NCBI GenBank assembly: GCA_964646855.1
Contig: CAZYHQ010000001.1
Coordinates: 3,414 to 67,413, forward strand
Source of the DNA: an uncultured archaeon
Lineage (GTDB): Archaea > Aenigmatarchaeota > Aenigmatarchaeia > CG10238-14 > SCSR01
DNA length: 64,000 bases
Reading direction: 5' to 3'
Every line of letters starts with the position of its first letter. The stretch's first letter is position 1. Of the stretch, positions 12,508 through 58,027 are shown in pieces. The notes beneath the pieces are model-generated. The model saw only the letters and a program-made list of their open reading frames with translations. It was not told the DNA's origin and did no database searches. The position numbers and the translations under genes are program-made.

Positions 12508-12548
12508 TATTTTACCATTTCTCTATAGTTTGTTTAATTATTTCTCCT

Positions 12549-29461: not shown

Positions 29462-29467
29462 GTTACC

Positions 29468-31057: not shown

Positions 31058-31092
31058 CTTATTAATTTTGAATTGAGGTTAATTATAAATAG

Positions 31093-35179: not shown

Positions 35180-35204
35180 ATAACTTCAGAAACTTCTAAA
35201 ACAC

Positions 35205-40847: not shown

Positions 40848-40850
40848 TAA

Positions 40851-41873: not shown

Positions 41874-41880
41874 CTCAAAA

Positions 41881-42972: not shown

Positions 42973-43072
42973 ATCAACAACTTTCTGAGAAAAATATAAA
43001 CTTTTGGTTTTTAAAGTTAAGTGAATCTCTGATTCTAACAAGTTATTTAACCGCATATTTCATCTAAAATTT

Positions 43073-43924
43073 ATGAAAAAAATTTTAGTAACAGGAGGAA
43101 ACGGTTACATCGGTTCAAAACTTGCAACAGTTCTAAAAGAAAAAGGATACGAAGTGGAGACATTTGATCAGCCAAAAGACATTCGGAGCAAAACAGAAGT
43201 TGAAGAAGCAGTTAAAGGAAAAGACATAGTCTACCATTTAGCCGCAGTGACGAATCACAGTTGGATGGATGCACACCCATCAGAAACATTCGACGTCAAC
43301 ATTGTTGGAACAAAAAATGTTGCGGAAGCGTGTGCAGCCAACAAAGTTCTTTTAAATTTCATATCGACTTGTAGCATTTTTGAAGATTCATTGGAATCTC
43401 CCACTGATGTGTACGCAGCTAGCAAAGCTGCCGGCGAATGGGTAGTAAAAGCATGGCATATCTCAACAGGAGTTGAGTATAATATTTTAAGAGTGGACAC
43501 TGTATACGGACTAAGCATAGATAACAAAATGAGGACCGACACATGTATTCCAGTGTTTTTGGAACATGCAATCAGAAACAAAAAACTACCTATATTTGGA
43601 ACTGGAAAAGAGACCAGAAACTATCTGCACATCGATGATGTAATTGATGCATTGGTTGCTGTGTTAGAGAAAGAGGTAAAAAATGAAACTATCAACCTAT
43701 CTGGTGTAGAACAAATTTCAGTTCTTGACGTGGCACGCACGGCATTAAAATCAGCTGGAATGCCAGAAGATTCCGTTGAGTTTTATCCGCCAAGAAAAAA
43801 CAGCTTTAGTTATCCAGTTATCAGCATTGAAAGGGCAAAGAAACTTCTTGGATGGTATCCTAAAATTAGCTTTGAACAGGGAATGTCAAATCTGTATAAT
43901 TTGCTAAAAAATACAAAATCGTAA
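43073..43924 (+). CDS. short NAD-dependent epimerase/dehydratase
   Basis: KILVTGGNGYIGSKL and YAASK motifs. 283 aa. Confidence 0.7.
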   Translation: MKKILVTGGNGYIGSKLATVLKEKGYEVETFDQPKDIRSKTEVEEAVKGKDIVYHLAAVTNHSWMDAHPSETFDVNIVGTKNVAEACAANKVLLNFISTCSIFEDSLESPTDVYAASKAAGEWVVKAWHISTGVEYNILRVDTVYGLSIDNKMRTDTCIPVFLEHAIRNKKLPIFGTGKETRNYLHIDDVIDALVAVLEKEVKNETINLSGVEQISVLDVARTALKSAGMPEDSVEFYPPRKNSFSYPVISIERAKKLLGWYPKISFEQGMSNLYNLLKNTKS

Positions 43925-43934
43925 TTTAATTACA

Positions 43935-44960
43935 TCATACGTCAGCAAATTCCTTCAGGTAAACTTTTCTATTTTCTGCTGCAGACAACCTCACGGCTTC
44001 CATTAACTTTGCCTGGGCTAGAATGTTTTTGTATACATCGGAAATTTTTTGTATATTCTTGCTCAATACTGTGTTGCAAAAATCTCTAAAAATAATCTCG
44101 AAGTGGTTTGCCGCCTGCACTTTTACCGAAGTGATTACGTCTTTCGCGGTCTCGTTGTGCAAGATTTCTACCGGAGGTTCCAAGTTCGCAGGTATGCTAT
44201 ATGCACGGTTGACCCTAACAAGACCTTTCTCACCCCAGACAGTGTAATTGTTTTGATAAACCTGGTTGAACCCGAAGGAGCAGAATGCAACCTTGTTGTT
44301 TGGAAATTCGACATAAGCAGAACCCTGTACGTCTACACCAGTCTCACTGTCAATAACAAGGTTCGCGGTGACAGCAACAGGTTCGCCTTCCAACATTTTT
44401 CTGGCCATAAAAAGCGTGTAAGAACCTGCATCGTTCAAGCTACCGCCTCCCAATTTTTTGTCATAACGGAAATTTTTTTTGTCAAGCGGAGGAAAACCAA
44501 AATATCCCTTGAACACAAAAGGCTCGCCTATCTCACCTTCATGTATGAGCGACAGAACTTTTGCGTGCTGAGGATGGAATCCGCACATAAAATTTTCATA
44601 TAGAGCAACACCGTTAGATTTACAGGCTTCAATCATTTTCACTGCAGATGAAAAACTGCCTGTTAAAGACTTCTCGCACAACACATGCTTTCCTGCAGAT
44701 GCAGCTTTGATGACCCATTCCTCATGCAGGCCCACAGGAAGCGGTATGTATACAGCATCTATGTCAGTCCTCTGCAATACAGCATCATAAGATTTTTCCG
44801 CAGATATTCCATGGCGTTTTGCACACTCTTCAGCCTTTTTAGGATTCCTGCTCGCAACGCAAATCAATTCCGCGTTATCGATGAACTTGAATGCGTTTAT
44901 CGAATATTTTTCTGCTATAGCTGCGCATCCCAAAATCCCAATTCGAACTTTTCCTGCCAT
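43935..44960 (-). CDS. Gfo/Idh/MocA-family oxidoreductase (nucleotide-sugar 3-dehydrogenase-like)
   Basis: N-terminal NAD Rossmann (IGILGCAAIAEKY) and the typical EKP-like motif (CEKS). 341 aa. Confidence 0.8.
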   Translation of the reverse strand: MAGKVRIGILGCAAIAEKYSINAFKFIDNAELICVASRNPKKAEECAKRHGISAEKSYDAVLQRTDIDAVYIPLPVGLHEEWVIKAASAGKHVLCEKSLTGSFSSAVKMIEACKSNGVALYENFMCGFHPQHAKVLSLIHEGEIGEPFVFKGYFGFPPLDKKNFRYDKKLGGGSLNDAGSYTLFMARKMLEGEPVAVTANLVIDSETGVDVQGSAYVEFPNNKVAFCSFGFNQVYQNNYTVWGEKGLVRVNRAYSIPANLEPPVEILHNETAKDVITSVKVQAANHFEIIFRDFCNTVLSKNIQKISDVYKNILAQAKLMEAVRLSAAENRKVYLKEFADV

Positions 44961-44968
44961 AACAAAAA

Positions 44969-45712
44969 CTACAGAAGAGCGAACACTTCGCGTGCCAGTG
45001 AGTTAACCACACCATCCATCCTCAGCAGTTTTTTAATCTGTGGTAATGTCAGCCAGATAAACTCTTCTGGCGCTTTTACATCTTCGTTTTCATTAACTTC
45101 AACCAACACGCTTCTGTTTGTTTTCAAATAAAATCGTCCGCCATCCTCCACACCTTCGGCGGAATATAAAACTCTACCCTTTCCACCTTCTTCAAAATAT
45201 TCAGCCAGTAAAGGTTTCTTTCCACCATGAACCAACTTCAAATTGCTTTGAGTCGCTTGTAACGCAGGAGAAAGTTGCAGATTCGGGTTGTTGCCAGGTT
45301 CGAATTTCGCATTCAGCAAATAATGTCTAACACCATTTATTTTTTTTGTGATGACACCCAAAATCCCACACTCAGCTTGTTTCATCATCGGTTGCGTCCA
45401 CGACGACACTTCACGATTTCCGGCCCCAGTCACGCGAACACCAATGATTTGAAAAAACCTTCCAGACTCGTGCGTTATCCAGCCTGTTTTTGGATCAACA
45501 TGCCACTTGTCCAATTCATTTATCCCAACTTCCTCAACCTTGGCAGGATATTTTTTTCTCTGTTCTTCTAACCACTGCAACACGCCTGTAATGTCAGACT
45601 TATCCTGCGCTAGCGTCATTTCTGCCAATCGCTCTGCAGCAACGGCAACTTCGTCAGTTACTTTGTACCCTTTTTGTTGTATGAACTGTACGATTTCCTC
45701 TTGCAAACCCAT
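44969..45712 (-). CDS. NDP-hexose 2,3-dehydratase-like protein (single-domain; tentative)
   Basis: The segment LLNAKFEPGNNPNLQLSPALQATQSNLKLVHGG recalls the conserved core of EvaA/TylX3-type hexose 2,3-dehydratase domains. Only 247 aa, whereas canonical enzymes have two such domains. Confidence 0.4.
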   Translation of the reverse strand: MGLQEEIVQFIQQKGYKVTDEVAVAAERLAEMTLAQDKSDITGVLQWLEEQRKKYPAKVEEVGINELDKWHVDPKTGWITHESGRFFQIIGVRVTGAGNREVSSWTQPMMKQAECGILGVITKKINGVRHYLLNAKFEPGNNPNLQLSPALQATQSNLKLVHGGKKPLLAEYFEEGGKGRVLYSAEGVEDGGRFYLKTNRSVLVEVNENEDVKAPEEFIWLTLPQIKKLLRMDGVVNSLAREVFALL

Positions 45713-45848
45713 TTCTATCTCAAATTTATTTGAGTCCGTGTTTTAAAAACCATCTGAACCAATGGTATTCTACCAAAAGTCCATTCGTTCAATAATTTCT
45801 TAAACACAATTTTCGTACAAATAAATCAGCTAAGTCTAAGTATTTCGA

Positions 45849-46886
45849 GTGAATATCATGAGCACTGTACTGGTTACCGGCGGAGCAGGTTACATCGGTT
45901 CTGTGTTGGTCAGAAAACTTCTTGACGAGGGCTTTAAGGTGAAGTGTCTTGACAGGTTCTTTTTCGGCATGGAATCTGTCAGCGAGCTGTTGGGTAACAG
46001 CAATTTTCAGGTAATCAAGGACGATATAAGATGGTTCAATCCGAAAATTTTGGAAGGCGTAGATTGTGTGATGGACCTGGCTGCAATTTCGAACGACCCG
46101 GCAAGCGAACTCGATCCTTCAAAGACGTACGACATCAATTTTGTGGGAAGAGTCAGAGTTGCGAACCTGAGCAAGAAGTACGGCGTCAGCAAGTACGTAC
46201 TTGCATCAACGTGCAGCGTTTACGGCGCGAAAGATCACAACGAAGTGTCAAACGAGAAATCCGAGCCCAACCCGCTCACTACATATTCAAAGGCAAATCT
46301 GATGGCAGAGAAAGAGATATTGCCGTTTGCTGACAACAAATTTTCTGTTACAGTTTTGAGGCAGGCAACAATTTACGGAGTCTCTCCACGCATGAGATTC
46401 GACATTGCGATAAACGCAATGGTTTTGAACGTGATGAAAAGTAAAAAACTTATGCTGATGCGCGATGGCACCCAGTGGAGACCGTTCGTCCACATAGCAG
46501 ACACATCAAGTGCATTCTTGGCAGTTGCAAATAGTTCTGTGGATACGGTGAACGGTCAGACATTCAATGTCGGCTCGAATGATCAAAATATTCAGGTGAA
46601 TGTTTTGCCGGAATTGGTAAAAAGTTCTCTGCCTATTGATTTTGAAATCGAATGGTATGGAAGTCCTGATACAAGATCTTACAGAGTTGACTTCGATAAG
46701 ATCGCCGAAATGCTTCACTTCAAGCCAAAGTTCTCACCCAAAGACGGAATCAAAGAGATTCATGATGCGATATCTTCAAATAAGATTTCTGATACGCTGA
46801 AGACCAGAACTGTTGATTGGTACAAGCATCTGATTGAGTCGGACAAACTTATTAAGGGCGTATCCATTAACTCTCAAATTTTGTGA
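45849..46886 (+). CDS. NAD-dependent nucleotide-sugar epimerase/dehydratase
   Basis: VLVTGGAGYIGS and YSKANLMAEK motifs. 345 aa. Confidence 0.75.
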   Translation: MNIMSTVLVTGGAGYIGSVLVRKLLDEGFKVKCLDRFFFGMESVSELLGNSNFQVIKDDIRWFNPKILEGVDCVMDLAAISNDPASELDPSKTYDINFVGRVRVANLSKKYGVSKYVLASTCSVYGAKDHNEVSNEKSEPNPLTTYSKANLMAEKEILPFADNKFSVTVLRQATIYGVSPRMRFDIAINAMVLNVMKSKKLMLMRDGTQWRPFVHIADTSSAFLAVANSSVDTVNGQTFNVGSNDQNIQVNVLPELVKSSLPIDFEIEWYGSPDTRSYRVDFDKIAEMLHFKPKFSPKDGIKEIHDAISSNKISDTLKTRTVDWYKHLIESDKLIKGVSINSQIL

Positions 46887-46890
46887 TATT

Positions 46891-48057
46891 ATGAAAGTTC
46901 TGATGATATCAAGAAAATTTGGGCCTCTACCGCAGATGTCATTCGGTCCGTTCCCTATGGTTTACAAACTTGTCAAGGGTCTGAATGAAAAGATAGACAT
47001 CGCAGTTTTATCTTCACATCGCGGTTTACCTGGAAAAGAAAGTGTGGAAGGCGTTGACGTATACAGGACTTTCTTTCCTCCCATAGATGACATGACAAAA
47101 TTATTTTTCATGCCGCATGCATTTTTTGAAAACGGTTTTGTCGGTAAATTCTCGCCAGAAGTATTGCACTCTCAAGATGTGGAGGGTGCAGCAGTTTTCA
47201 AGAAATATAAAAACACGAGTATGAAAAAAATTTTTGCGGTGAAATCCGCAGTATCGTTCAGAACCAAAAACAGGAGCCCAGATTATGGAACAAAGCAAAA
47301 GATTTACAGCAAGACTTTGGGTTTCTGGGAAAAAGTAATCATAGAAAATTCAGACTACTTCATCACGCCTGTGAATTTTTTGAAGCGCGAAATAAGCGAA
47401 CACTACGGAATAGACGATAGCAGATTCTTCAACATCAAAAACGGAACGTTCACAGATTTGTTCACGCCTCATGTGGATGACAGCAAACTCAGAAAGAAAT
47501 TGGGGTTGGGTAACGAAACAGTTTTTTTCAGCACATCTGCAGGATGGAGAAAGGGTTTTGACGCCCTGCTGAAGTCATTCAACATAATCAAAAAAGATTG
47601 CGACGACGCAAAACTTGTTGTTGCCGGCGCATCAAGCTTGGGCACATTTGAAAAATTTGTTGACACAAATGTCGTGGATTCGAAAGAGGATATAATTCTT
47701 GTTGGATATGTCAGCAATTACGATTTTCCGATGTACTACAACATGGCAAAACTTTTCTTGTTCCCGTCATTCATGGAGACACAACCTAACACACTAATAG
47801 AATCTTTGTCGTGCGGTACACCGGTCGTCACGTTCAATTCAGGGGGTTGCCCAGAATTGGTTTCGAAAAATGAGGGAGCCATTGTCAGGGTTGGGGACAC
47901 GGAAGGATTTGCAGAAGCAACTCTCAAACTATTGGACAACAAATCAAGACTAAGAAAATTGGAAGCTAATTGCAGAAAGCGGGCGTTGAGAGATTACACA
48001 ATCGAGAAGTCTGTTAACGAACACATTAAGATGTACGAAAGTGTTTTGAGCAGCTAG
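46891..48057 (+). CDS. GT4 (GT-B) glycosyltransferase
   Basis: C-terminal region [23 protein letters not shown] (E-x7-E-like). Start at the ATG at 46891. Confidence 0.75.
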
Positions 48058-49023
48058 ATGTTTATGGGCGAAAAAATTTTAGTTACTGGCGGAGCAGGCT
48101 TCGTTGGCAGCCATATATGCGAACGGCTTGTTGCAGAAGGCAAAGAGATAGTTATAGTCGACAATCTGCATAATTTTTACGATCCTAAAATAAAACTGTC
48201 CAATTTGAAAGGCCTTGCTCAAAACCCAAATGTAACGATTTTGAATGCCGACATTCGCGATGCTAACATTCAATCCGAGCTGAGTAAGTTCGAAATAAGT
48301 TCTGTACTCCATGTCGCGGCTATTGCAGGTGTCAGGCCGTCCATGCTGAATCCTGGGGAGTACATAGACATCAACGTGAAAGGAACGCTGAACATCTTGG
48401 AATTTGCGAGGAAAGCAGATGCAGACAAGTTCATTTTCTCTTCATCTTCATCAGTTTATGGCGATGTCCCCTTATCAGAGTTGCCAGTGGCAGAGACGGT
48501 GGAGCCAAAACCAATCTCACCTTACGCAGCTTCAAAACTCGGAGCCGAGATACTTTGCAACACCTACTTAAAAACATTCGGGCTCGATACAACAATCTTG
48601 CGATACTTTACTGTATACGGCCCTAGGCAAAGGCCGGATGAAGCGATATCAAAATTCACTTCTCTTATTCTGAAAAACCAGCCGATAGAAATTTTCGGCA
48701 ACGGAGAGCAGCAGAGGGATTTCACGTATGTGTCGGATGCAGTCGAAGGAACGCTGCTAGCACTGCGCAGCAAGAACTGCAGCGGCGAAACGATTAACAT
48801 AGCAGGAGGAAAAAGAATTTCTGTCAACGAACTTGTAAAAATAATTTCAAATATCCTAGGCTCACAACCAAGGATAATTTTTTCGGACAAGAAAGCTGGC
48901 GAGGCGTCTAACACGCACGCAGACATATCAAAAGCGGAAAAGATTTTGGGCTACAAACCGAAAGTTAGTATGGAAGAAGGAATTAGGAATTTTGTTCAAT
49001 GGTTCAAGAGTCAGCAGATATAA
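48058..49023 (+). CDS. NAD-dependent nucleotide-sugar 4-epimerase-like SDR
   Basis: [13 protein letters not shown] and YAASKLGAE motifs. 321 aa. Confidence 0.8.
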
Positions 49024-49041
49024 TTTTATTTATGAATTTTT

Positions 49042-50511
49042 ATGAGAGAATTTGAGAAGATAGGTCTTGACAGCCTGTACAATCTTCTTGGGTCAGTTTT
49101 TGTAGCTATCCTGACTTTTTTTATAACCGTAATCATAACAAGAAAGCTGGGTCCTGAGGACTACGGAATATTTTCTTATGCATTTTCTGTTTTTTCCCTG
49201 CTACCGCAATTCTGCTTGCTGAGCCTGAACACAATTTTGTTGAGGGACACTGCGTTTTTCGCTGGCAAGCGCGACCCTTCTGCAATAAAATCTTACTTCC
49301 TTCAGTTCTCAAAAATTGTTTTTCTGACTACCACAGCTATTTCTTTAGGGTTACTCGTGACAATTTTTGCGTTTCCAGGTCTCATTCCATTCTCTAATTT
49401 CCTTGTCATGTTCATCCCGTATCTGTTCATCATAAATTTCTTTACCCTGATTACATCAGGATCTTTGTCGGGACTGAGGAAATTCGGTCTTGTGAATTCT
49501 CTCACAGTTGTGTCTAGAGTATTGCTTCTGTTGTTTGTGCTATTGTTTATTGGCCAAAGGGTTTCAGGCGTGATAGTTTCTTACACGGTCAGCCTTGCAA
49601 TCCCACTTGCGATCTCACTGTTTTTTGTCCACAAAATTATTTTGTCAAAAGTCAAGACCAAGAAAATCAGTATTAATGAAATATTCTCGTTCTCACTGCC
49701 GTTCTTCATTGCGCAGATTCTTTTCGGCGTATTGCTTTATTTCAACATATTTGCTCTGACTTACTTCGCTCCAAAGTTTGGTTTCGATGACGTCGGTTTC
49801 TATTCGCTAGCATTTCACATCGAACTGTTTTTGGAAACTTTGCTGCTGTTTGTAGCAAACTCCGTAACGCCGGCAATTTCCCAGTTCTACGGTGCAAATG
49901 AATTTTCAAGAATCAAAAAAATATTTTCTCTTGGTATGAAGTACACGTTTATTTTTGTATTTCCGATAATGTTTTCGCTTGTGGCTGCAGCAGATGTACT
50001 GATACGCGATGTTTTCACAAAGACCTATTCAGGGTCGACCTTGGTGCTGCAAATACTTGCGTTCACATTGGTAGCCACGATGCTTCTCAGGTACATGCTT
50101 TCTATAATTCTTGCGAAAAAACTTGTCAGATCGTATCTTTACTTGGGAATTATACTGCTTGTAGTTACGGTGCCGTTGACACTGTTCCTTACATCAGAAT
50201 TTTCTGCGATAGGCGCAGCACTTTCAAGGGTCGTACCGCTTGTAGTGCTTACGATAATTTTTACTAAAATCATAGTCAAAAAGGCGCGACTTCAGCTGCC
50301 CTCAAGAGATTTGTTGGCAGAATTTGCCGGCTCGCTAATGTTTCTGCTGTTGTTCTTGGCCCCAAGAAACTTATTCTCTGTAATCGCATACTTTATGGCA
50401 ATTGGTATAGCCTACATTTCCTTCTTGTATTTTGTTAAAGTTCTTAGAGCAAGCGACATCGAAAGGGTAAAAACGTTTTTCAAGCTTCTAATTGATCCGT
50501 CCGCTAGATGA
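49042..50511 (+). CDS. Wzx-like oligosaccharide flippase (MOP/polysaccharide biosynthesis protein family)
   Basis: 489 aa with ~12-14 TM helices and an N-terminal pattern typical of PST-family flippases. Confidence 0.65.
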   Translation: MREFEKIGLDSLYNLLGSVFVAILTFFITVIITRKLGPEDYGIFSYAFSVFSLLPQFCLLSLNTILLRDTAFFAGKRDPSAIKSYFLQFSKIVFLTTTAISLGLLVTIFAFPGLIPFSNFLVMFIPYLFIINFFTLITSGSLSGLRKFGLVNSLTVVSRVLLLLFVLLFIGQRVSGVIVSYTVSLAIPLAISLFFVHKIILSKVKTKKISINEIFSFSLPFFIAQILFGVLLYFNIFALTYFAPKFGFDDVGFYSLAFHIELFLETLLLFVANSVTPAISQFYGANEFSRIKKIFSLGMKYTFIFVFPIMFSLVAAADVLIRDVFTKTYSGSTLVLQILAFTLVATMLLRYMLSIILAKKLVRSYLYLGIILLVVTVPLTLFLTSEFSAIGAALSRVVPLVVLTIIFTKIIVKKARLQLPSRDLLAEFAGSLMFLLLFLAPRNLFSVIAYFMAIGIAYISFLYFVKVLRASDIERVKTFFKLLIDPSAR

Positions 50512-50585
50512 TTGTTCCATCGGTTTTATATATGTTTTTTCCAACAATAACCTATAGAAAAATTTTTTGAATAAAGGTAAACAAA

Positions 50586-51554
50586 ATGAAAAGTTCTCAG
50601 CCCTACGTGTTAGTAACAGGCGGGTCAGGTTTCATAGGCTCACATACCGTTGAAGAACTTTTGTCAATCGGCAAGAACGTAATTATTTTGGATCCGGCCC
50701 CGCCGTTGTTTGCTGACAGAGAATTGGTGAAATCAGGGCGCGTTATTTACAAACACGGAACTAGCTATGATTTACCGCAGATGCTGGACATAGCTAACAA
50801 TTTCGAGCTCGAAGGCATATTCGACATTGGCGGCATACTCGGCACAGAAGAGTTGAGTAAGCGAATAGACAGCGCTATGGCGTTCAACGTAATCGGTTCT
50901 ACAAACACATTGGAACTGGCACGGATGAAAGATTTGAAAATTTTCTTTCCGATGAAAGAAGGCGTGTGGCTCGAAGGATACAGCCTGACAAAGAACACAA
51001 TACTGCACCAATACAAAATCTACAGAAAGATGTACGGGCTGAAAACTGTGGTTTGTGTGTGGTACCATGCGTATGGAGAGAGGCAGGCGGTATTCCCGGT
51101 AAGAAAAGCAGTTCCTACTTTCATAATGCAGGCGCTGTGCGGGGACAATTTTACGATAATGAACGACCCGAAGAACGCGCTTGATTACATATACGTTAAA
51201 GACGTGGGCAAGATAGTTGTTAATTTATTCTATTCGGACAAAACCAATTTCGACGAGGTATACGAAATCGGAAGCGGCAAGTCAATTACTTTGGAGGATC
51301 TCGTGAATCTGATAAAGCGGCTTACAAACAGCAGCAGCAATACAGAACTTATAGAGTATAGAAAGACACTACCAGAGCACCCTTTCGGCACTGCGGATGT
51401 AACAAAATTCGAGAACGTCATCGGCAAGTACGATTTCATGCCTCTGGAAAAAGGCATGAAGTTGACAGTTGACTGGTACAAACAGAATTATTCCATTGAG
51501 CAGCTGAAGAACGCTCTTGCATTGTGGAGACAGAGACAAACATACGGCGTTTGA
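50586..51554 (+). CDS. NAD-dependent epimerase/dehydratase
   Basis: VLVTGGSGFIGSH motif. 322 aa. Confidence 0.7.
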   Translation: MKSSQPYVLVTGGSGFIGSHTVEELLSIGKNVIILDPAPPLFADRELVKSGRVIYKHGTSYDLPQMLDIANNFELEGIFDIGGILGTEELSKRIDSAMAFNVIGSTNTLELARMKDLKIFFPMKEGVWLEGYSLTKNTILHQYKIYRKMYGLKTVVCVWYHAYGERQAVFPVRKAVPTFIMQALCGDNFTIMNDPKNALDYIYVKDVGKIVVNLFYSDKTNFDEVYEIGSGKSITLEDLVNLIKRLTNSSSNTELIEYRKTLPEHPFGTADVTKFENVIGKYDFMPLEKGMKLTVDWYKQNYSIEQLKNALALWRQRQTYGV

Positions 51555-51631
51555 ACAGCAACAGCAACTGCAACGTAGACGATTGTTCCACTTGTTTTAA
51601 ATATTTTTTTCCAGCAATAGTTTTTGAGAAA

Positions 51632-52438
51632 ATGGAAGACATACCAGTAGTTATTCTCTGCGGCGGTAAAGGTTTCAGGCTAAGAGAATTCACCGAAACA
51701 ATGCCCAAAGCCTTGGTGCCGATAGGGAACATGCCGATACTGTTACACGTGATGAAACTTTACGCGCACCACGGCTACAGAAGATTCATCCTGTCTTTAG
51801 GATACAAAGGCAACGAAATCAAACAGTACTTCATGAACCATGATTGGATGTCAAACGATTTTTTACTCAAGATGGGTCCGGCAAAAGAAGTAAGACACCT
51901 GTCCAGCAACTTGCACGATTTTGAAATAACCTTTGTTGACACAGGATTGGAAACAAATACTGGCGGGAGAGTTAAAAAAATAGAGAAACACATCGACACG
52001 GAAAATTTCATGGCAACATACTGCGACGGCGTGGCAAACATAGACTTGAACTCGCTTTTGGGATTCCATAAAAATATGGGCAGGATAGCAACTCTTACAG
52101 GCGTGCATCCTATAACATCTTTCGGTTTCATAGAAACTGAAAACGGAATAGCAAAATCATTCAGGGAGAAGCCGGCGCTCCCCGGCTTGGTCAACGGCGG
52201 ATTCTTCGTCTTCAACAAAAAAATTTTCGAATTCCTCGAAGAGGACAGCATCTTGGAAGACAAACCGCTGAGAACTTTGGCCTCAGCAGGGCAGCTTGCA
52301 GTTTACGAGCATAAAGATTTTTGGGCTTGCATGGATACTTTCAAAGATGTCGAGCGACTGAACGGTATTTGGGACACAGGGTACATGCCGCTCGGCTATT
52401 ACCAATTCAAAAAAGCTCCTTGGAAAATCTGGGAATAA
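51632..52438 (+). CDS. rfbF: glucose-1-phosphate cytidylyltransferase
   Basis: Close to the RfbF signature (VVILCGGKGFRLREFTETMPKALVPIGNMPILLHVMKLYAHHGYRRFILSLGYKGNEIKQYF). Start at the ATG at 51632. Confidence 0.85.
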   Translation: MEDIPVVILCGGKGFRLREFTETMPKALVPIGNMPILLHVMKLYAHHGYRRFILSLGYKGNEIKQYFMNHDWMSNDFLLKMGPAKEVRHLSSNLHDFEITFVDTGLETNTGGRVKKIEKHIDTENFMATYCDGVANIDLNSLLGFHKNMGRIATLTGVHPITSFGFIETENGIAKSFREKPALPGLVNGGFFVFNKKIFEFLEEDSILEDKPLRTLASAGQLAVYEHKDFWACMDTFKDVERLNGIWDTGYMPLGYYQFKKAPWKIWE

Positions 52439-52442
52439 TTCC

Positions 52443-53447
52443 ATGTCAGATAATTTTTGGCCAGACAAAAGAGTTTTGATAACTGGTGCAACAGGTTTCA
52501 TTGGCTCATGGCTGACTGAAGATTTGATTTCTAAAGGAGCGAGTGTTTCAGTTTTTGTAAAAAAGGATTCATTCGGAACCGACGCAGTCAAGCATTTAGA
52601 ATCCAAACTGAAAACTTTTCATGGAGATATAACTCAGAAGGACACGATAAAACCGGCAATAAGCGATCAAGAAATTATTTTTCACCTTGCAGCATACAGT
52701 CAGGTCCTGCATTCAATTGAAAATCCCAGTGAAGCATTTTTAGTGAACGCAACCGGTACTTTGAACTTGCTTGAAGAAGTGCGGAAAAACAATTCGAATT
52801 CTATTTTCGTTTTTGCTAGTACAGACAAAGTTTACGGCGAGCCGAAATACCTGCCGATTGATGAGCAGCACACTTTAAGCGCAAAATCTCCCTATGACGC
52901 ATCCAAACTAGCAGCAGACCGGTTGACATATTCTTACTATACTTCTTACGGCATGAATTGCACAATTTCCCGCTGGTCGAATACAATTGGCGGGCGAGAC
53001 GCAAACATTTTACGCGCGGTTCCAGATTTTGTAACAAGCCTACTGAATAACAGACCACCAACAATAAGAAGAACAGGGGAAGACGTTCGTGATTACATGT
53101 ATGTGACCGACGCGATTCGTGGAATCGAACTCCTTGCACAAGAAATTAATTTGACGAAAGGCCAAGCGTTTAATCTTGGAACAGAGAAACCGATTAAGCT
53201 AATAGAATTGTGCAAATTAATTTTGAAAACAATGGGACACGAAAATAAATTCCAGCCAACAATTTTAGGAAAACAAATTCCTGGGGAAATTGATAAACAG
53301 CATTTGTCTGCTAAAAAATCCATGGAAGTTACGAAATGGAGTCCTGAAGTAACATTAGAGGAAGGAATAAGGAAATCAATCGAGTGGTATTCACAGAACA
53401 GATGGTGGGAAGAAGTAATGAAGAGAGTGGCTAACGCCCGCACCTAA
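52443..53447 (+). CDS. rfbG: CDP-glucose 4,6-dehydratase
   Basis: N-terminal FWPDKRVLITGATGFIGSWL and YDASK, typical of RfbG/DdhB. 334 aa. Confidence 0.8.
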   Translation: MSDNFWPDKRVLITGATGFIGSWLTEDLISKGASVSVFVKKDSFGTDAVKHLESKLKTFHGDITQKDTIKPAISDQEIIFHLAAYSQVLHSIENPSEAFLVNATGTLNLLEEVRKNNSNSIFVFASTDKVYGEPKYLPIDEQHTLSAKSPYDASKLAADRLTYSYYTSYGMNCTISRWSNTIGGRDANILRAVPDFVTSLLNNRPPTIRRTGEDVRDYMYVTDAIRGIELLAQEINLTKGQAFNLGTEKPIKLIELCKLILKTMGHENKFQPTILGKQIPGEIDKQHLSAKKSMEVTKWSPEVTLEEGIRKSIEWYSQNRWWEEVMKRVANART

Positions 53448-54739
53448 ACAATTCTCGGCCCCGGTATAGGGATAATAAATTTTCCACCAATGTCTTTGTA
53501 TTTTTGTTGCTGCCTCATTACTTCGTCAGCAAAATTCCAAGCAAGTATAAACATATAGTCAGGTTTGTCTTCCAAAATTTTTTCTACCGGAACAACTGGA
53601 ATGTGCATACCAGGCGTAAGCAATCCATGTTTCAGCGGGTTTTTGTCTGCTATGTAATCCAATAACTTTGTGTCGATACCAAAGAAATTAAGCAGTGTGT
53701 TGCCCTTTGCTGGCGCGCCGTACCCGATTATATTTTTGCCTTCTGATCTCAATTTTTTTAGCAACGAAATCAAATTTTCTTTCAGCCTTTTTATTCTATC
53801 TGCAAATTCCAGATAAGTTTCAAATTTGTCAAGTTCCATTTCTTCCTCCAACTTCAGCAATTCACCAACAGCAGCTGTAGTTTTCAAGTTTGATGATTTC
53901 TTTTTTACGTAAATCCTTATCGTGCCGCCATGAATTGGAAAACGCTTTACGTCGAAAATTTCCATGTCAAAGCTTTTGAAAAGTTCTGTCAAAGGTCTGA
54001 TTGCAAAATAGGAAAGGTGTTCATGGTAAGCAGTATCGAACTCGTTGTTTTGTATCATGTCAACAAGGTATGGCACCTCGATGACAAACGCACCATCATC
54101 CTCAAGCAAAACACTGACTCCTGCCAACAAATCGTAGGAATCGTTTATGTGCGCTACTACATTGGTCGCGGTTATAATCTTTGCTTTGCTTTTTTCTTTT
54201 ACTATTTTCTCTGCAGTGGCTGAATTGAAAAAATCGTTCACAGTTTCTATCCCGGATTTTCTTGCGATTTCTGCGATGTTAGTTGCAGGTTCGACGCCAA
54301 GAGTTCTTATACCAACCTTTTTGAAACCCTTCAGTAATGTCCCGTCATTGCTCCCTATGTCAACAACAAGCGAATTCTCGCCAGCGCCAACAATCTTTGT
54401 GGACTCGTCAGCAAGCTGCTGAAAATGCACAGGAACTGCGTCAGACGTTCCAGATACCCACAGATAACTTTTGAACATCAATTCCGGGGGTACAACATAA
54501 TCCAGCTGCACTAAACCACAATTGTTGCAGAAAACTAAGTTTAGTGGGTAGGTTGGTTCTGGTTTTTTCAAGTCTTCTTTCCTCAAAAAACTGTTTGCCA
54601 AAGGCTGATTACCAAGTTCCAAAAATTTTTTTAGTTCAGCGTTTTTGCAAATCCTACAATTGGTTACCTGCATGTCATCACTTGTAGACTTTAGATACAA
54701 CGGATTTAAATTTTGTGTACTCTTATTTCCATCATGCAA
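53444..54739 (-). CDS. NDP-hexose C-methyltransferase (TylCIII-like; zinc-ribbon + SAM MTase + C-terminal C-MT domain)
   Basis: N-terminal CRICKNAELKKFLELGNQPLANSF Zn-binding motif, SAM motif VVDIGSNDGTLL, and the characteristic C-terminal domain. 431 aa. Confidence 0.8.
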   Translation of the reverse strand: MHDGNKSTQNLNPLYLKSTSDDMQVTNCRICKNAELKKFLELGNQPLANSFLRKEDLKKPEPTYPLNLVFCNNCGLVQLDYVVPPELMFKSYLWVSGTSDAVPVHFQQLADESTKIVGAGENSLVVDIGSNDGTLLKGFKKVGIRTLGVEPATNIAEIARKSGIETVNDFFNSATAEKIVKEKSKAKIITATNVVAHINDSYDLLAGVSVLLEDDGAFVIEVPYLVDMIQNNEFDTAYHEHLSYFAIRPLTELFKSFDMEIFDVKRFPIHGGTIRIYVKKKSSNLKTTAAVGELLKLEEEMELDKFETYLEFADRIKRLKENLISLLKKLRSEGKNIIGYGAPAKGNTLLNFFGIDTKLLDYIADKNPLKHGLLTPGMHIPVVPVEKILEDKPDYMFILAWNFADEVMRQQQKYKDIGGKFIIPIPGPRIV

Positions 54740-55618
54740 ATACTTGTTACCGGCGGAACAGGAGTAATTGGTTACAAGCTAGTGAAATATTTCGTTGATA
54801 ACGGCGAGAATGCCAGCTACACATATCTTTCACATGAAACCGAAATCAAAAGTGCAATTGGCCACAAACTTGATATAACAGACACGCAAGCAGTTCTTGA
54901 TTTGATAAATAAAATCAAGCCAAACGTCGTTGTACATACTGCGGCATTGACAAAGGTTGACTTGTGCGAAACAAATCACAAACTTGCGGATGCGATGAAT
55001 ATAGAAGGCACAAGAAACATAGTTGAAGCTTGCAAAGCTACCGGCAGCAAAATAGTGTTGGTTTCTACTTCAGCTGTATTCGACGGCAAAAAATCTGTTT
55101 ACTACGAGGACGACGAAGTCAACCCTCAATATTATTATGCTTTCACCAAAGCAGAAGCAGAAAAAATTGTAAAAACTTCTGGCTTAGAATTTCTGATTCT
55201 TCGAACAGACCAACCTTACTGCTGGACAGAGAAGTGGCAGCATGACAACTCAGTTCTGCGAGTGATTAACAAACTGAAGGCAGGAAAGGTTATGAAAGAC
55301 GTTGCTGACTGGTATAACAACCCAACCCTTGTTGACAATTTTGTTGAAGTTGCATTCGCTTTGATCAAGAAAAATCAAACTGGAATCTATCACGTTTGCG
55401 GTTCTGATTATTTGAACCGTTATGAAATGGCACTGAAAGTTGCGGAAGTTTTTGGATTAAATAAAGATTTAGTTCAGTCGATGAAGTCAATAGAACTTAG
55501 CCTGCCAGCAAAAAGAGTTAATGTGAATTTGAATAATGAAAAGGCTCAGAAAGATTCTGGGGTCAAACTGCTAAATTTTGAAGAAGGACTAAACTCAATG
55601 AAAGTAAAAATTGCTTAA
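54734..55618 (+). CDS. RmlD-like NAD(P)H-dependent nucleotide-sugar 4-ketoreductase
   Basis: ILVTGGTGVIGYKL Rossmann motif and YAFTKAEAEK catalytic region. ~295 aa, the size of dTDP-4-dehydrorhamnose reductases. Confidence 0.6.
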   Translation: MQILVTGGTGVIGYKLVKYFVDNGENASYTYLSHETEIKSAIGHKLDITDTQAVLDLINKIKPNVVVHTAALTKVDLCETNHKLADAMNIEGTRNIVEACKATGSKIVLVSTSAVFDGKKSVYYEDDEVNPQYYYAFTKAEAEKIVKTSGLEFLILRTDQPYCWTEKWQHDNSVLRVINKLKAGKVMKDVADWYNNPTLVDNFVEVAFALIKKNQTGIYHVCGSDYLNRYEMALKVAEVFGLNKDLVQSMKSIELSLPAKRVNVNLNNEKAQKDSGVKLLNFEEGLNSMKVKIA

Positions 55619-57813
55619 TTTGAAACAACTGTCTGAAATGTATCATTGTAGGAAGTCTGATTGACAGTTATGTTTGGTGTGTAGATTGCATTGGTTGTAT
55701 AATCAGTCTCAATTATTACGAAAACTTTTTCCGAGTTGTTAAGCGAAGTGGTCTGCGTCGAGTGTATGTTTGATTGGCCGGTATTGAACAACCATGAAAA
55801 TATCTGGCTACCCAAGTTATTGACTATCTCAAAGACCTGAACTGTGCTGTCTTTGTTTTCCTTCAGCACAAGACCGCCCAACACTTCTATCATGTTCACT
55901 TGGAATTTGTCTGCAAAGCTGTTGTTGAAAGTTCCGTTATATGCTTGAACAGCTGGTGTTCTTTTGCCCTGCGCGCTGTAGTTTACTTCTACTGTAAAGT
56001 TTGTAGTTTCTCTCGGCGCAAGAGTTACCGAAGTGTTGCTAGTTACACCTGCATCAGAAATACGCCAATTTATGTTGGAAACATTGTAAGGCCAGTAGTT
56101 TGTTATGTTAAACCTGAAGACTCTTATGTTTGTTTCATTTTTCTTGTAGCTTTCAAAGTTTTCAATTCTTATTGCGTTGAGAACAAATGATTCGTTAAAG
56201 CGATCTGAAATGGCCCCAGAGACTATTGTAACATTAACATCTTTGTTACCGTCAGTAGTGTAGTTTATACTTTGCGTTACTGTGCTTGATGCATCGGTTC
56301 CCAAGCTGCCTGTGCTTCCAGAAAACAGCTGGTCATCGCTTCTTATGTTATAAGTTACCGTCAATGCCGACCAATAATTCTTGATGTTGAACTGCATGTT
56401 TCTATTGTTTTCTCCAACAGAACTTGTGTTGTAATCTTCAATTTTTGTTCCTTTTAGTTCAAACTTTACAAACTTTGTATCGTTTCCTTCGGGTGAAGTT
56501 ACGTTGCAATTTAGGTATTTTGCTCCGGGCGAACCGTATGTTCTGTTGAGGTATTCGGTTCTCCTGCCGAAAGCTGATACAGAAAACGAACTGTTTGACT
56601 TGGCACCGTTATCGCAAGCCCAGTCCATGTTGCTTACAGTAGAATTCAGGCCGTTGAGTATTGTCATGTTGAAATTTGCCTTGTCTCCATTCTGGCTGAT
56701 GAATGATAGCGACCCTATGGTAATTCCAAACTTGTTTGTAATGTTTTCGAAATCATAAGAACCAGGATTAGACCGTGCCGTCACATTTACTTTGTAACTT
56801 CCGCCAGATGAGTAATTATGTTCGACTATAACTAACACTGATTCGTTGGTCGATACATTAAATGCATTTGTAGAAATAATCTGATTGCCGTCTCCAAAAT
56901 CTGCAGTCCAGTTTACATCTGTAATTGTAGAATTCTTTTCGTTTGCAAGATAAAACTGGAAAGTTCTGTTTCTGTCAGCAGAATAAAGATTTTCTTGTCT
57001 GCTAACATCTACGCCAGCATCCACCGTTACTATCTGCGACGGCGCGTGCACAGGGTAACTGCCGTAAACGAATTTTGTTGTATTGGCACTGTCTCTCACT
57101 ATTTTCAGAATGTTGCCTATCGGATTGTATGAGTATAACCAAGTGTTGCCTGCGATAGAAACATTTACCAGCCTGTCCAGAAAGTCATAAGCCATTCTGT
57201 AAGTTCGATTGTTTGCGGTGTCATTAATCAGGACAATGTTGCCCACAGAATCATACGTGTAATTAATATTTTGAATCGCACCAGTTTTTATTTGCTGCAA
57301 TCTTGAATTTGTTTCATTGTAAGTCTGTTCAGTAATCCTGGTATTTGCATAAGTCCTGTTCAGCATTTTGTCGAACGCATCGTAGAAAGTATTGGTTATG
57401 TAGTTAGTAATCTTGTTTACCTTGCTCTGGTTGTTGTAGTAGTATTCTATTTCTTGTCCTGTTAAATTTATTTCAAGTACTCTATCCATAGAGTCATAGA
57501 CATATCTTTTCTCAAATTGTATACCATCGATAATCCTGATTTCCGTTATCAGTCTCAGTTTGTCATTGTATTCGTACTTTACTGTGTCATTGCCGAATGT
57601 AACGTTTGTCAGAGTTCCTTGGTGTTGCTCGTCGTAAGTGTAGTTTATGCTAATGCCTGTAGAATTTTTAGTTACAATTCTGTTTAACGCATCGTAAGTT
57701 ATGTTCACTTGGTTCGTCGGATTGTCGTAAGTTAAATCTTGTGTGGCAGCAATCGCCAACTGCGGGATTAATGCAAAAACGATCATTGCAAATAAAAACA
57801 ATTTAGTCTTCAT
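55615..57813 (-). CDS. secreted YD-repeat protein with Ig/PKD-like domains, extremely rich in N-x-S/T sequons
   Basis: Signal peptide MKTKLFLFAMIVFALIPQLAIAA. N-terminal YD repeats (YTYDALNRIV, YTYDEQHQG, YEYNDKLRL, YVYDSMDRV, YTYDSVGNI), then beta-rich repeats with more than 40 N-x-S/T sites. Start at the ATG at 57813. Confidence 0.7.
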   Translation of the reverse strand: MKTKLFLFAMIVFALIPQLAIAATQDLTYDNPTNQVNITYDALNRIVTKNSTGISINYTYDEQHQGTLTNVTFGNDTVKYEYNDKLRLITEIRIIDGIQFEKRYVYDSMDRVLEINLTGQEIEYYYNNQSKVNKITNYITNTFYDAFDKMLNRTYANTRITEQTYNETNSRLQQIKTGAIQNINYTYDSVGNIVLINDTANNRTYRMAYDFLDRLVNVSIAGNTWLYSYNPIGNILKIVRDSANTTKFVYGSYPVHAPSQIVTVDAGVDVSRQENLYSADRNRTFQFYLANEKNSTITDVNWTADFGDGNQIISTNAFNVSTNESVLVIVEHNYSSGGSYKVNVTARSNPGSYDFENITNKFGITIGSLSFISQNGDKANFNMTILNGLNSTVSNMDWACDNGAKSNSSFSVSAFGRRTEYLNRTYGSPGAKYLNCNVTSPEGNDTKFVKFELKGTKIEDYNTSSVGENNRNMQFNIKNYWSALTVTYNIRSDDQLFSGSTGSLGTDASSTVTQSINYTTDGNKDVNVTIVSGAISDRFNESFVLNAIRIENFESYKKNETNIRVFRFNITNYWPYNVSNINWRISDAGVTSNTSVTLAPRETTNFTVEVNYSAQGKRTPAVQAYNGTFNNSFADKFQVNMIEVLGGLVLKENKDSTVQVFEIVNNLGSQIFSWLFNTGQSNIHSTQTTSLNNSEKVFVIIETDYTTNAIYTPNITVNQTSYNDTFQTVVSN

Positions 57814-58027
57814 AGAAACCTCCTGAGACAATTCTCATCAGCTCTTTGAACGGAGTGTAAATTTTCGTGCTGGCAGAATCGTTGCGAGAAATCTCTGACA
57901 GTCTTAACGAAAGAATTCGGAAATTATTTTTGGAAAATATTTTTATTTCAGCTAGATAATTTTGATTGTCCTTTGTTAATTTTTTTACTATAATTATTTT
58001 ATTTTCTAAAAGCGACTCTTGTTTCAT
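57803..58027 (-). pseudogene. orphan ORF carrying a fragment of the RHS core (…RNDSASTKIYTPFKELMRIV…)
   Basis: The 74-aa ORF has a C-terminal half that duplicates 20 aa found in the large RHS protein. Confidence 0.35.
57836..57883. repeat. 48-bp direct repeat (46/48 identical to 59607-59654) derived from the RHS core-coding region
   Basis: catcagctctttgaacgg[a/c]gtgtaaattttcgtgctggc[a/t]gaatcgtt. Encodes ...STKIYTPFKELMRIV... on the minus strand in both copies. Confidence 0.85.

Follow-up and report, generated by a model that had tools for sequence, protein, structure and literature searches.

A putative pair of deoxysugar modules, one with a half-size hexose 2,3-dehydratase, in the surface-glycan island of an uncultured archaeon

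Introduction

Does the surface-glycan island of a small archaeal genome encode a single route to a C-methyl-branched deoxysugar carried on cytidine diphosphate (CDP), or do its deoxysugar genes belong to separate pathways? The question is raised by a 64,000-nucleotide stretch of contig CAZYHQ010000001.1 (GenBank assembly GCA_964646855.1, forward-strand positions 3,414 to 67,413) from an uncultured member of the Aenigmatarchaeota. This whole stretch is called the window below, and it was read as archaeal because it encodes an archaeal-type Nop5 (N-domain), a helicase with archaeal domain 4 and a family B polymerase. Actinomycete antibiotics are the textbook source of C-methyl-branched and 2,6-dideoxy sugars, and the presence of genes for such antibiotic-type sugars in a flippase/glycosyltransferase island of a small archaeal genome makes for an unexpected host. 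An original prediction, made from the letters alone, had placed in positions 44969-55618 an RfbF cytidylyltransferase, an RfbG 4,6-dehydratase, a sugar C-methyltransferase, an RmlD-like ketoreductase, several short-chain dehydrogenases/reductases (SDRs) and a protein of 247 amino acids (aa) resembling hexose 2,3-dehydratases, all joined in one CDP-linked route.

All the named genes were present at or very near the predicted positions, with family matches far beyond chance in Pfam, NCBIfam and the PDB; the region holds ten genes, and profile and PDB matches placed each of them in the family predicted. The predicted range, however, cut the unit short. The genes at 39705-44960 run contiguously with the 2,3-dehydratase gene and share its strand, except for one encoding a 283-aa SDR; they encode a 3-ketoreductase, that SDR, a long-form RmlA, a second SDR and a DegT aminotransferase. 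Of these, the prediction had overlooked the long-form RmlA and the 3-ketoreductase, which is of the KijD10 type.

We propose, with moderate confidence, that two nucleotide-sugar modules of separate origin share this island: module A (51632-55618), which would produce a CDP-3-C-methyl-6-deoxyhexose, and module B (41881-45712), a putative 2,6-dideoxyhexose set typical of DPANN archaea and Patescibacteria. The proposal is based on family membership, conserved catalytic residues, gene order and the co-variation of the modules across genomes.

The four-gene set of module A

The genes of module A are the following:

51632-52438, plus strand: RfbF-family sugar-1-phosphate nucleotidyltransferase, 268 aa (TIGR02623, 247 bits)
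52443-53447, plus strand: candidate nucleoside diphosphate (NDP)-glucose 4,6-dehydratase, an extended SDR of 334 aa (S-T-D-K-V-Y-G, Y-D-A-S-K)
53444-54673, minus strand: NDP-hexose 3-C-methyltransferase dependent on S-adenosylmethionine (SAM), 409 aa, TylCIII/MtmC/TcaB9 family (Pfam and PDB)
54734-55618, plus strand: RmlD-like NDP-4-ketohexose 4-reductase, 294 aa (RmlD_sub_bind, 195.8 bits)

The starts of the nucleotidyltransferase (51632), C-methyltransferase (54673) and RmlD-like (54734) genes, as well as those of a GT4 glycosyltransferase (46891) and an SDR (45858) listed further below, were corrected using gene calls in relatives and ATG checks, as the starts of the longest open reading frames lay too far upstream (originally 51524-52438 on the plus strand, 53444-54739 on the minus strand for 431 aa, and 54713-55618 on the plus strand).

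In the proposed pathway, the RfbF-like enzyme would form CDP-glucose and the S-T-D-K dehydratase would convert it to CDP-4-keto-6-deoxyglucose. The C-methyltransferase would then place a methyl group on C3, beside the 4-keto group, and the RmlD-like enzyme would reduce C4, giving a CDP-3-C-methyl-6-deoxyhexose like that of the Bacillus cereus cereose/cillose operon. The product would probably be D-configured, because an RmlC-type epimerase is absent from the 64-kb window (tblastn with seven cupin epimerases).

The methyltransferase is a sugar C-methyltransferase of the TylCIII/MtmC/TcaB9 type, as predicted, and not an O- or N-methyltransferase. It comprises a zinc-binding N-domain (PF08421, Methyltransf_13, 91.5 bits), a SAM methyltransferase domain (PF13489, Methyltransf_23, 54 bits) and a C-methyltransferase C-terminal domain (PF08484, Methyltransf_14, 210.2 bits), and could be aligned end to end with MtmC. 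Its PDB matches were MtmC (4rv9, E = 5.5e-101), TcaB9 (E = 1.1e-88) and also the sugar 3-C-methyltransferase 5t64. Two C-x2-C pairs (C-R-I-C and C-N-N-C) and a Y-H-E-H-L-S-Y motif align with MtmC; the catalytic E-H pair of TcaB9 is presumably Glu224/His225. The methylated carbon would be C3. The enzyme is 41-44% identical to C-methyltransferases encoded downstream of bacterial rfbF-rfbG genes. The RmlD-like protein, whose PDB matches are RmlD structures, agreed with the predicted 4-ketoreductase, although it scored 188 bits on TIGR01214, below the equivalog cut-off of 224.05. Its gene diverges from that of the C-methyltransferase across a 60-bp gap, and it is 51-61% identical to the reductases of related sets at loci L049, L055 and L056 (L numbers denote the loci fetched from other genomes).

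The nucleotidyltransferase was assigned to the RfbF family. On TIGR02623 (glucose-1-phosphate cytidylyltransferase RfbF) its score did not reach the equivalog cut-off of 300.25, and the next family scored 86 bits; in the PDB, it matched 1tzf (E = 3.5e-61, 210 bits), followed by a structure at 60 bits. The equivalents of 1tzf R15, K25 and R111 are kept, and the T14 position is occupied by Phe; we take Thr14, Arg15, Lys25 and Arg111 to be the ligand-anchoring residues of 1TZF. The enzyme belongs to a subclade characterised by a 10-aa C-terminal insert and by G-F-R where the family has G-T-R, the T14-equivalent position being F, L, T or M across the subclade. The members at L049 and L050 scored 259-263 bits on TIGR02623, likewise under the cut-off. 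Homologs at 55-60% identity carry the NCBI name glucose-1-phosphate cytidylyltransferase, and on two archaeal contigs subclade members share operons with a bona fide RfbH that scores 716-723 bits (cut-off 423). The enzyme is probably a glucose-1-phosphate cytidylyltransferase.

The gene for the 4,6-dehydratase candidate follows after a 4-bp gap, and the pair is kept as a unit at L050, L051, L055 and L056. The protein scored 171 bits on the RfbG model TIGR02622 (cut-off 278.45) and 192 bits on the dehydratase model for glucose linked to deoxythymidine diphosphate (dTDP), also below cut-off; it is approximately 28-30% identical to annotated RfbG, and its best PDB match is 2hun. A D-K pair is typical of CDP-glucose and UDP-GlcNAc dehydratases, and RmlB has D-E. 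Consistently, the motif reads T-S-D-K-C-Y in annotated RfbG of Bacillus, S-S-D-K-C-Y in that of Leisingera and S-T-D-E-V-Y-G in the RmlB of L055; the S-T-D-K motif of the window protein is conserved at L050, L051, L055 and L056. The predicted RfbG identity thus stood as regards the motif and failed as regards the profile scores. RfbG orthology was dropped, as the protein fails both the RfbG and the RmlB cut-offs and the motif alone favours RfbG.

A B. cereus operon of four enzymes reportedly gives CDP-cereose and CDP-cillose, which are said to be CDP-3-C-methyl-6-deoxyhexoses. An earlier chemical example of a C-methyl 6-deoxysugar carried on CDP is CDP-vinelose from Azotobacter vinelandii. Like module A, the B. 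cereus operon contains contiguous genes for an RfbF-family cytidylyltransferase, a D-K 4,6-dehydratase, a TylCIII-family C-methyltransferase (42% identical to that of the window) and a 4-reductase. Plasmids of B. cereus and B. thuringiensis carry annotated genes in the same rfbF-rfbG-methyltransferase-reductase order, and PGAP-annotated rfbF-rfbG-methyltransferase(-reductase) operons were found on plasmids of these species, Leisingera and Roseibium; Sinorhizobium meliloti has ddhA-ddhB followed by an annotated NDP-hexose 3-C-methyltransferase. In Campylobacter jejuni HS:41, CDP-based 6-deoxyhexose routes with RmlC- and RmlD-like enzymes have been characterised. The window set differs from that of B. 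cereus in several respects. Its nucleotidyltransferase belongs to the distinct subclade described above (37-41% identity) and scores below the cut-off, its dehydratase shares no more than about 30% identity with RfbG and reaches neither the RfbG nor the RmlB cut-off, its reductase is of the RmlD type whereas the Bacillus reductase resembles none of the window proteins closely (at best approximately 25% identity, with an SDR other than the RmlD-like one), and its host is archaeal. The CDP-cereose and CDP-cillose pathways of B. cereus are named in PMC7725333, which cites Li et al. (J Biol Chem 2017, 292:7636). Because of these compounds and the annotated bacterial operons, the view that a CDP-linked C-methyl deoxysugar would be unusual here holds for the host and not for the chemistry. 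With the four-gene set, the characterised Bacillus pathway gains a new archaeal member, which adds hosts rather than chemistry.

The half-size 2,3-dehydratase and its partners in module B

Module B comprises four genes:

44969-45712, minus strand: half-size single-domain NDP-hexose 2,3-dehydratase, 247 aa (PF03559)
43935-44960, minus strand: KijD10-type NDP-3,4-diketo-2,6-dideoxyhexose 3-ketoreductase, 341 aa (Pfam GFO_IDH_MocA)
43073-43924, plus strand: short SDR, 283 aa (Pfam Epimerase and RmlD_sub_bind; NCBIfam hits weak)
41881-42972, minus strand: long-form glucose-1-phosphate thymidylyltransferase RmlA_long, 363 aa (TIGR01208, 414.9 bits)

The long-form RmlA would provide dTDP-glucose, the half-size 2,3-dehydratase would take the 4-keto-6-deoxy intermediate, the KijD10-type reductase would reduce C3 and the 283-aa SDR would then reduce C4. 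The 4,6-dehydratase needed in between would be encoded elsewhere in the genome, or the gene at 52443 would be shared and serve both nucleotides.

The 247-aa protein proved to be a hexose 2,3-dehydratase, in line with the original prediction. It contains one Hexose_dehydrat domain (PF03559, E = 2.4e-64, 216.9 bits against a cut-off of 25) and matched EvaA of the chloroeremomycin pathway (4j7g, E = 4.4e-70). Residues 43-245 align to both halves of the 471-residue EvaA, with 143 bits for the N-terminal and 94 for the C-terminal half. E138 and E189 are the equivalents of EvaA E139 and E190 and are invariant among 35 aligned homologs. According to a review (PMC8987622), mutagenesis showed E139 and E190 of pocket A to be required for EvaA activity, and pocket B is a non-catalytic relic of gene duplication. 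The top fold matches of an AlphaFold2 (AF2) model (predicted local distance difference test, pLDDT, 91.5) were EvaA entries 4j7g/4j7h (Foldseek E = 5e-17, TM 0.70-0.74 on the query length and approximately 0.4 on the EvaA length), the match spanning about 40% to half of the EvaA chain; Nudix hydrolases such as NUDT5 came next. The Nudix-type fold and both glutamates are therefore shared with EvaA (4J7G/4J7H). However, the EvaA chain has two domains in tandem, its pocket A being active and its pocket B non-catalytic, whereas the archaeal protein has a single Nudix-like domain nearer to the N-terminal half, with no second half encoded nearby. C2/C3 dehydration of an NDP-4-keto-6-deoxyhexose is the predicted reaction, supported by the coupling to the KijD10-like reductase. 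Nudix hydrolases of the NUDT5 type work as homodimers, and the 247-aa protein presumably does so as well, mimicking the two-domain pseudo-dimer of EvaA with two equivalent pockets.

The single-domain form was the rule among the 120 best database homologs, which measured 209-266 aa, nearly all of them approximately 245 aa. On plasmids of cultured bacteria, 185 match places were found in 93 records, nearly all from Streptomyces and related actinomycetes; about two places per record fit the two-domain form of the actinomycete dehydratases. The phage collection contained no homolog of the 247-aa dehydratase.

The 3-ketoreductase gene starts 9 bp downstream of the dehydratase gene. Its product matched KijD10 of the kijanimicin/digitoxose pathway (3rbv) with E = 2.4e-52, the next structure following at 2.9e-35, and the two share the GFO/IDH/MocA fold; the similarity is moderate (181 bits over approximately 325 aligned residues). 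The conserved K97 and Y181 align to the lysine of E-K-P and the tyrosine of D-I-G-V-Y in KijD10, whose catalytic residues we take to be K102 and Y186. Like KijD10, the window homolog is coupled to a 2,3-dehydratase. The 283-aa SDR lacks the D-E or D-K dehydratase pair and is likely a 4-ketoreductase, as judged from its families; it is present at L004 and is missing from L051 together with the 2,3-dehydratase, the ketoreductase and the long-form RmlA. The long-form RmlA, with NTP_transferase and hexapeptide domains, exceeds the TIGR01208 cut-off of 320.25.

Co-variation of the two gene sets across genomes

The window proteins, together with RmlA, RmlB, RmlC and RmlD references from L005, were compared by tblastn with all fetched loci, and neighbours were counted over 39 loci. 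The half-size dehydratase was recovered at 38 loci in GTDB species genomes, the hosts being Woesearchaeota, Nanoarchaeia, otherwise unclassified archaeal genomes and Patescibacteria, and no others. Such a set of relatives suggests that the window, too, comes from a DPANN archaeon. Its neighbours were distributed as follows:

KijD10-like reductase: 34 of 39 loci
short RmlA: 29 of 39 loci
RmlB: 26 of 39 loci
C-methyltransferase of a distinct clade, immediately adjacent: 14 of 39 loci
RfbF-like nucleotidyltransferase: 1 of 39 loci (L004, the 84% relative)

In the DPANN and Patescibacteria sets (for example L005 and L031-L045), the order is RmlA-RmlB-(RmlD-like)-(C-methyltransferase)-half-size dehydratase-ketoreductase, and the dehydratases and ketoreductases are 54-65% and 47-61% identical to those of the window, respectively. 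The dehydratase homolog at L005 (GCA_035291225.1) is 65% identical; this locus also encodes an RmlA-like nucleotidyltransferase (228-231 bits, below the cut-off), a true RmlB, whose 427 bits exceed the cut-off of 365, and, approximately 1.4 kb from the dehydratase set, an STT3/AglB oligosaccharyltransferase. These sets carry true RmlA/RmlB and a different C-methyltransferase clade, whereas the window and L004 have no nearby RmlB and add the RfbF-like four-gene set. The dehydratase-linked C-methyltransferases are 62-67% identical between archaea and Patescibacteria, and the window enzyme is only 48% identical to them. Taken together, the half-size dehydratase, the ketoreductase and the adjacent C-methyltransferase show 47-67% identity between archaeal genomes and Patescibacteria (L005-L046), which suggests that ultra-small episymbionts of the two domains have exchanged these genes.

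The four-gene set, which is contiguous in the window, recurs at L004, L055 and L056 and partly at L051. L055 and L056, the closest relatives by C-methyltransferase (77% and 67%), have the same divergent RmlD-like, C-methyltransferase, S-T-D-K SDR and RfbF-like genes, with identities of 57-61%, 67-77%, 56-74% and 64-70% to the window proteins, respectively. No 2,3-dehydratase or KijD10-like gene was found within 8-10 kb at either locus. Each also carries a small RmlC-like gene, a type present at L004 as well and, as noted, not in the window. At L051 (GCA_053536775.1), the nucleotidyltransferase is 98%, the 4,6-dehydratase 94% and a C-methyltransferase fragment 96% identical to their window counterparts, and the SDR-DegT pair is kept. 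No 2,3-dehydratase was found in the approximately 12 kb available, the contig ending just past the 4,6-dehydratase gene; between the SDR and GT4 genes, the 2,3-dehydratase, ketoreductase, 283-aa SDR and long-form RmlA are all missing. It follows from this co-variation at L051, L055, L056 and the 39 loci that the genes at 51632-55618 form one unit and the dehydratase, ketoreductase, 283-aa SDR and RmlA genes another.

The exchange at L051 was also seen as a cassette swap. Where window 41864-46891 encodes the 2,3-dehydratase, its ketoreductase partner, both the 283-aa and the 342-aa SDR and the long-form RmlA, L051 has at 2457-5604 genes for a DAO-family oxidase and a different GFO protein of 295 aa; the flanks are 62-98% identical (nucleotidyltransferase 98%, DegT 89%, GT4 62%). 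A swap at strain level suggests rapid turnover of surface-sugar genes.

The comparison bears directly on the prediction of a single route from the 2,3-dehydratase to the C-methyl genes, and it spoke against that part by separating the four-gene set from the dehydratase, which travels with RmlA/RmlB. In such a route, CDP-4-keto-6-deoxyglucose formed by the 51632/52443 enzymes would pass to the half-size dehydratase and the KijD10-like reductase and then be methylated at C3 and reduced at C4, giving a CDP-linked, mycarose-like 2,6-dideoxy-3-C-methylhexose. The island does contain all five enzyme types needed beyond the nucleotidyltransferase, and its only 4,6-dehydratase candidate is coupled to the RfbF-like gene. 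At L005 and approximately 12 Patescibacteria loci, genes for RmlB, RmlA, an RmlD-like protein, a C-methyltransferase, the dehydratase and the ketoreductase are contiguous, so the enzyme combination exists in these lineages. MtmC, the best solved match of the C-methyltransferase, acts on a 2,6-dideoxy substrate. Moreover, the window and L004 alone have the dehydratase pair without short RmlA and RmlB and with the RfbF-like set instead. On the other hand, each set recurs without the other, and the two lie approximately 6 kb apart in different operons. An above-cut-off thymidylyltransferase gene stands beside the dehydratase pair on the same strand, with only the opposite-strand 283-aa SDR gene between them. 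The window C-methyltransferase is not of the type that adjoins the dehydratase elsewhere, and the dehydratase shows almost no lineage-specific change hinting at a nucleotide switch, the two substitutions K51Q and V185A being its sole departures from dTDP-context homologs at well-conserved positions. These last two findings lean against the single route, which we regard as unlikely. As a sign of a nucleotide switch in themselves, K51Q and V185A were set aside, being uninformative without ligand contacts. In its fullest form, with a CDP-mycarose built into the surface glycan by way of a minimal dehydratase that works as a homodimer with two active pockets, the idea appears doubtful to us; if true, it would provide the first CDP-activated 2,6-dideoxysugar and the first antibiotic-type 2-deoxysugar shown in an archaeal cell envelope.

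Nucleotide carriers and the missing 4,6-dehydratase

For module A, CDP is the likely carrier, judging from the RfbF family, the 55-60% homologs and the RfbH neighbours; in the predicted CDP assignment, these points stood, whereas the sub-threshold score and the G-F-R motif did not fit. A reading in which all steps use dTDP appears rather improbable. In that case, the 52443 enzyme would serve dTDP-glucose from the long-form RmlA, the RfbF-like enzyme would not be specific for cytidine triphosphate or would act on another sugar, and the product would be a dTDP-mycarose-like or dTDP-2,6-dideoxy sugar as at L005. The scores of the 52443 protein (192 bits for dTDP, 171 for CDP) agree with it, as do its best PDB match, a Pyrococcus horikoshii entry labelled dTDP-glucose 4,6-dehydratase, the loss of the G-T-R threonine in a nucleotidyltransferase below the RfbF cut-off, and the dTDP type of every other half-size dehydratase locus. 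Against it, the nucleotidyltransferase-dehydratase pair with its 4-bp gap is a conserved unit at four loci (L050, L051, L055 and L056), and L050 couples the pair to RfbH. The D-K pair agrees with RfbG and not with the D-E of RmlB sequences. In addition, L055 has the pair and, separately, an RmlA-long/RmlC/RmlB (S-T-D-E) set; the two would be redundant if both were for dTDP, which argues for different nucleotides.

Several findings weigh against two modules with different carriers. Both the nucleotidyltransferase and the 52443 dehydratase fall below their equivalog cut-offs, the dehydratase scoring slightly higher on the dTDP model, and the nucleotidyltransferase has Phe for the Thr of G-x-G-T-R; because of the sub-threshold scores, we infer CDP for module A rather than take it as demonstrated. 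A neighbour-joining tree of C-methyltransferases, calculated without bootstrap, did not assign the window enzyme to either the CDP-context or the dTDP-context type, nor did it separate C3 from C5 methylation or a 2-hydroxy from a 2-deoxy substrate; this tree is not decisive because identities to every reference group of either context are 41-48% and bootstrap values are lacking. No canonical RmlB was found in the 64-kb window (tblastn with the L005 RmlB), and a six-frame scan located the sole [ST][ST]D[EK]xYG motif of the window in the 52443 gene, beside the RfbF-like gene. As 52443 is the only 4,6-dehydratase candidate, module B would be without its second step within the 64 kb, and the same RmlB gap was seen in the 20 kb available of L004. 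A second candidate, the SDR gene at 28385-29461, was rejected, as its product has the T-S-E motif of UDP-xylose synthase (UXS) types.

The SDR-DegT pair and the route without 6-deoxygenation

Two further genes continue the minus-strand run beyond module B:

40851-41864, minus strand: SDR, 337 aa, with S-S-S-C-A-V-Y-G (best PDB match 6vo6/6vo8, E = 2.2e-35)
39705-40820, minus strand: DegT-family sugar aminotransferase, 371 aa (PF01041, E = 2.3e-122)

Because of its S-S-S-C-A-V-Y-G motif, the 337-aa SDR is not a 4,6-dehydratase. We take its structural relative 6vo6 to be C. jejuni Cj1427, a GDP-heptose C4-dehydrogenase, and the SDR is possibly a C4-dehydrogenase feeding the adjacent DegT aminotransferase. 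The latter is closest to C4-aminotransferases in the PDB (perosamine synthetase, 6.9e-73; ArnB, 1.7e-68), with all NCBIfam scores below cut-off.

This SDR type adjoins a C4-type DegT gene in the window, at L004 and at L051. At L049 (8001-12672), it occupies the expected 4,6-dehydratase slot, between an RfbF-like nucleotidyltransferase gene and genes for RmlC, RmlD and a bona fide RfbH. The arrangement at L049 may represent a C4-oxidation route to 4-amino or 3-deoxysugars that retain the 6-hydroxyl group.

For the window, the corresponding alternative is a minus-strand route without 6-deoxygenation, in which formation of dTDP-glucose by RmlA_long, C4-oxidation by the Cj1427-like SDR, removal of the 2-hydroxyl group by the 2,3-dehydratase and 3-ketoreductase and C4-amination by DegT would give a 4-amino-2,4-dideoxyhexose. 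In its favour, all of the six contiguous genes at 39705-45712 except that of the 283-aa SDR lie on the minus strand, and the nearest relatives of the SDR and DegT proteins as well as the L049 slot are compatible with it. However, 2,3-dehydratases are not known to accept sugars other than 6-deoxy ones, the dehydratase pair travels with RmlB in other genomes, and L051 keeps the SDR-DegT pair without the dehydratase, ketoreductase and RmlA. Because the pair persists alone at L051, the SDR-DegT and dehydratase groups are separable, and we consider this route highly improbable.

The surrounding glycan island

The remaining genes of the predicted region lie on the plus strand before module A:

45858-46886, plus strand: SDR, 342 aa, first gene of the plus-strand operon and a paralog of the 40851-41864 SDR
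46891-48057, plus strand: GT4 glycosyltransferase, 388 aa (Pfam Glycos_transf_1, Glyco_trans_1_4)
48058-49023, plus strand: GalE-like or UDP-sugar-epimerase-like SDR, 321 aa, with S-S-S-S-S-V-Y-G
49042-50511, plus strand: Wzx/MOP-family flippase, 489 aa (Pfam Polysacc_synt, MatE)
50586-51554, plus strand: atypical SDR, 322 aa, with a shortened catalytic region

The first SDR type (45849 type, by its uncorrected start) is 42-44% identical to relatives of the 40851 type. The 342-aa protein has Y-S-K-A-N at the expected catalytic Y-x-x-x-K and may be inactive or use a shifted lysine. In the 322-aa SDR, the span from the expected Ser/Thr to Y-S-L-T-K is unusually short and the Pfam match is in two pieces; its 76% homolog at L004 adjoins the 3-ketoreductase gene and not the RfbF-like gene.

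The deoxysugar genes are embedded in a larger glycan island, at approximately 26 to 56 kb of the window, that also encodes a UDP-glucose dehydrogenase, a UXS-like SDR, GT2 and GT4 glycosyltransferases, three PMT/GT-C-like proteins and the Wzx-like flippase. Within it, 26311-36572 contains the genes for the UDP-glucose dehydrogenase, a GalU/RmlA-like nucleotidyltransferase, the UXS-like SDR (A-S-T-S-E-V-Y-G), a D-2-hydroxyacid dehydrogenase, two GT2 transferases and the three PMT/GT-C-like membrane glycosyltransferases. The island is flanked by genes for a 738-aa RHS-repeat protein (55615-57831, minus strand) and a 1662-aa protein with SpvB, TcdB_toxin_midN, FG-GAP and RHS domains (58587-63575, minus strand), an architecture like that of Tc toxins (TcB/TcC type), here within a small archaeal genome. 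An RHS gene likewise adjoins the RmlD-like gene at L004, in the same position. Beside the family B DNA polymerase gene, two proteins (395 aa, 20227-21414, plus strand; 537 aa, 24625-26238, minus strand) had no Pfam match at the thresholds used. ThyA-type thymidylate synthase and serine hydroxymethyltransferase are encoded side by side at 11641-14329 on the minus strand; the organism can therefore make deoxythymidine monophosphate, which is relevant if dTDP-sugars are used.

Discussion

Among the closest known counterparts of the deoxysugar genes is the dTDP-mycarose pathway of actinomycetes (TylX3, TylC1, TylC3, TylK and TylC2 for L-mycarose; MtmC for D-mycarose in mithramycin), in which the same families perform 2,3-dehydration, 3-ketoreduction, 3-C-methylation and 4-ketoreduction. 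The two differ in the architecture of the dehydratase, which has two domains in the actinomycete pathways and one in the window, and in the partners of the C-methyltransferase, coupled here to an RfbF-like nucleotidyltransferase and there to RmlA/RmlB. They also differ in their setting, a flippase and glycosyltransferase glycan island as opposed to a polyketide cluster. The enzyme types of a mycarose pathway are all present in the island; they are encoded in separate operons, and the C-methyltransferase belongs to another clade, so that they do not form a single mycarose-type unit.

All of the enzymes belong to known kinds. What departs from the usual picture is a family of single-domain 2,3-dehydratases and the ketoreductase that accompanies it, widespread in DPANN-type archaea and Patescibacteria. 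In the literature searched, we found no paper describing the DPANN and Patescibacteria dehydratase sets, no description of the half-size family with its partner, and nothing relevant on archaeal or Patescibacteria 2,3-dehydratases or mycarose. The half-size enzyme offers a natural test of the published view that EvaA's second pocket is left over from a gene duplication, and it could serve as a compact tool for glyco-engineering. Finally, the occurrence of the dehydratase-ketoreductase pair at 47-65% identity in DPANN-type archaea and Patescibacteria suggests that these episymbionts carry such sugars on their surfaces and pass the genes for them between lineages.

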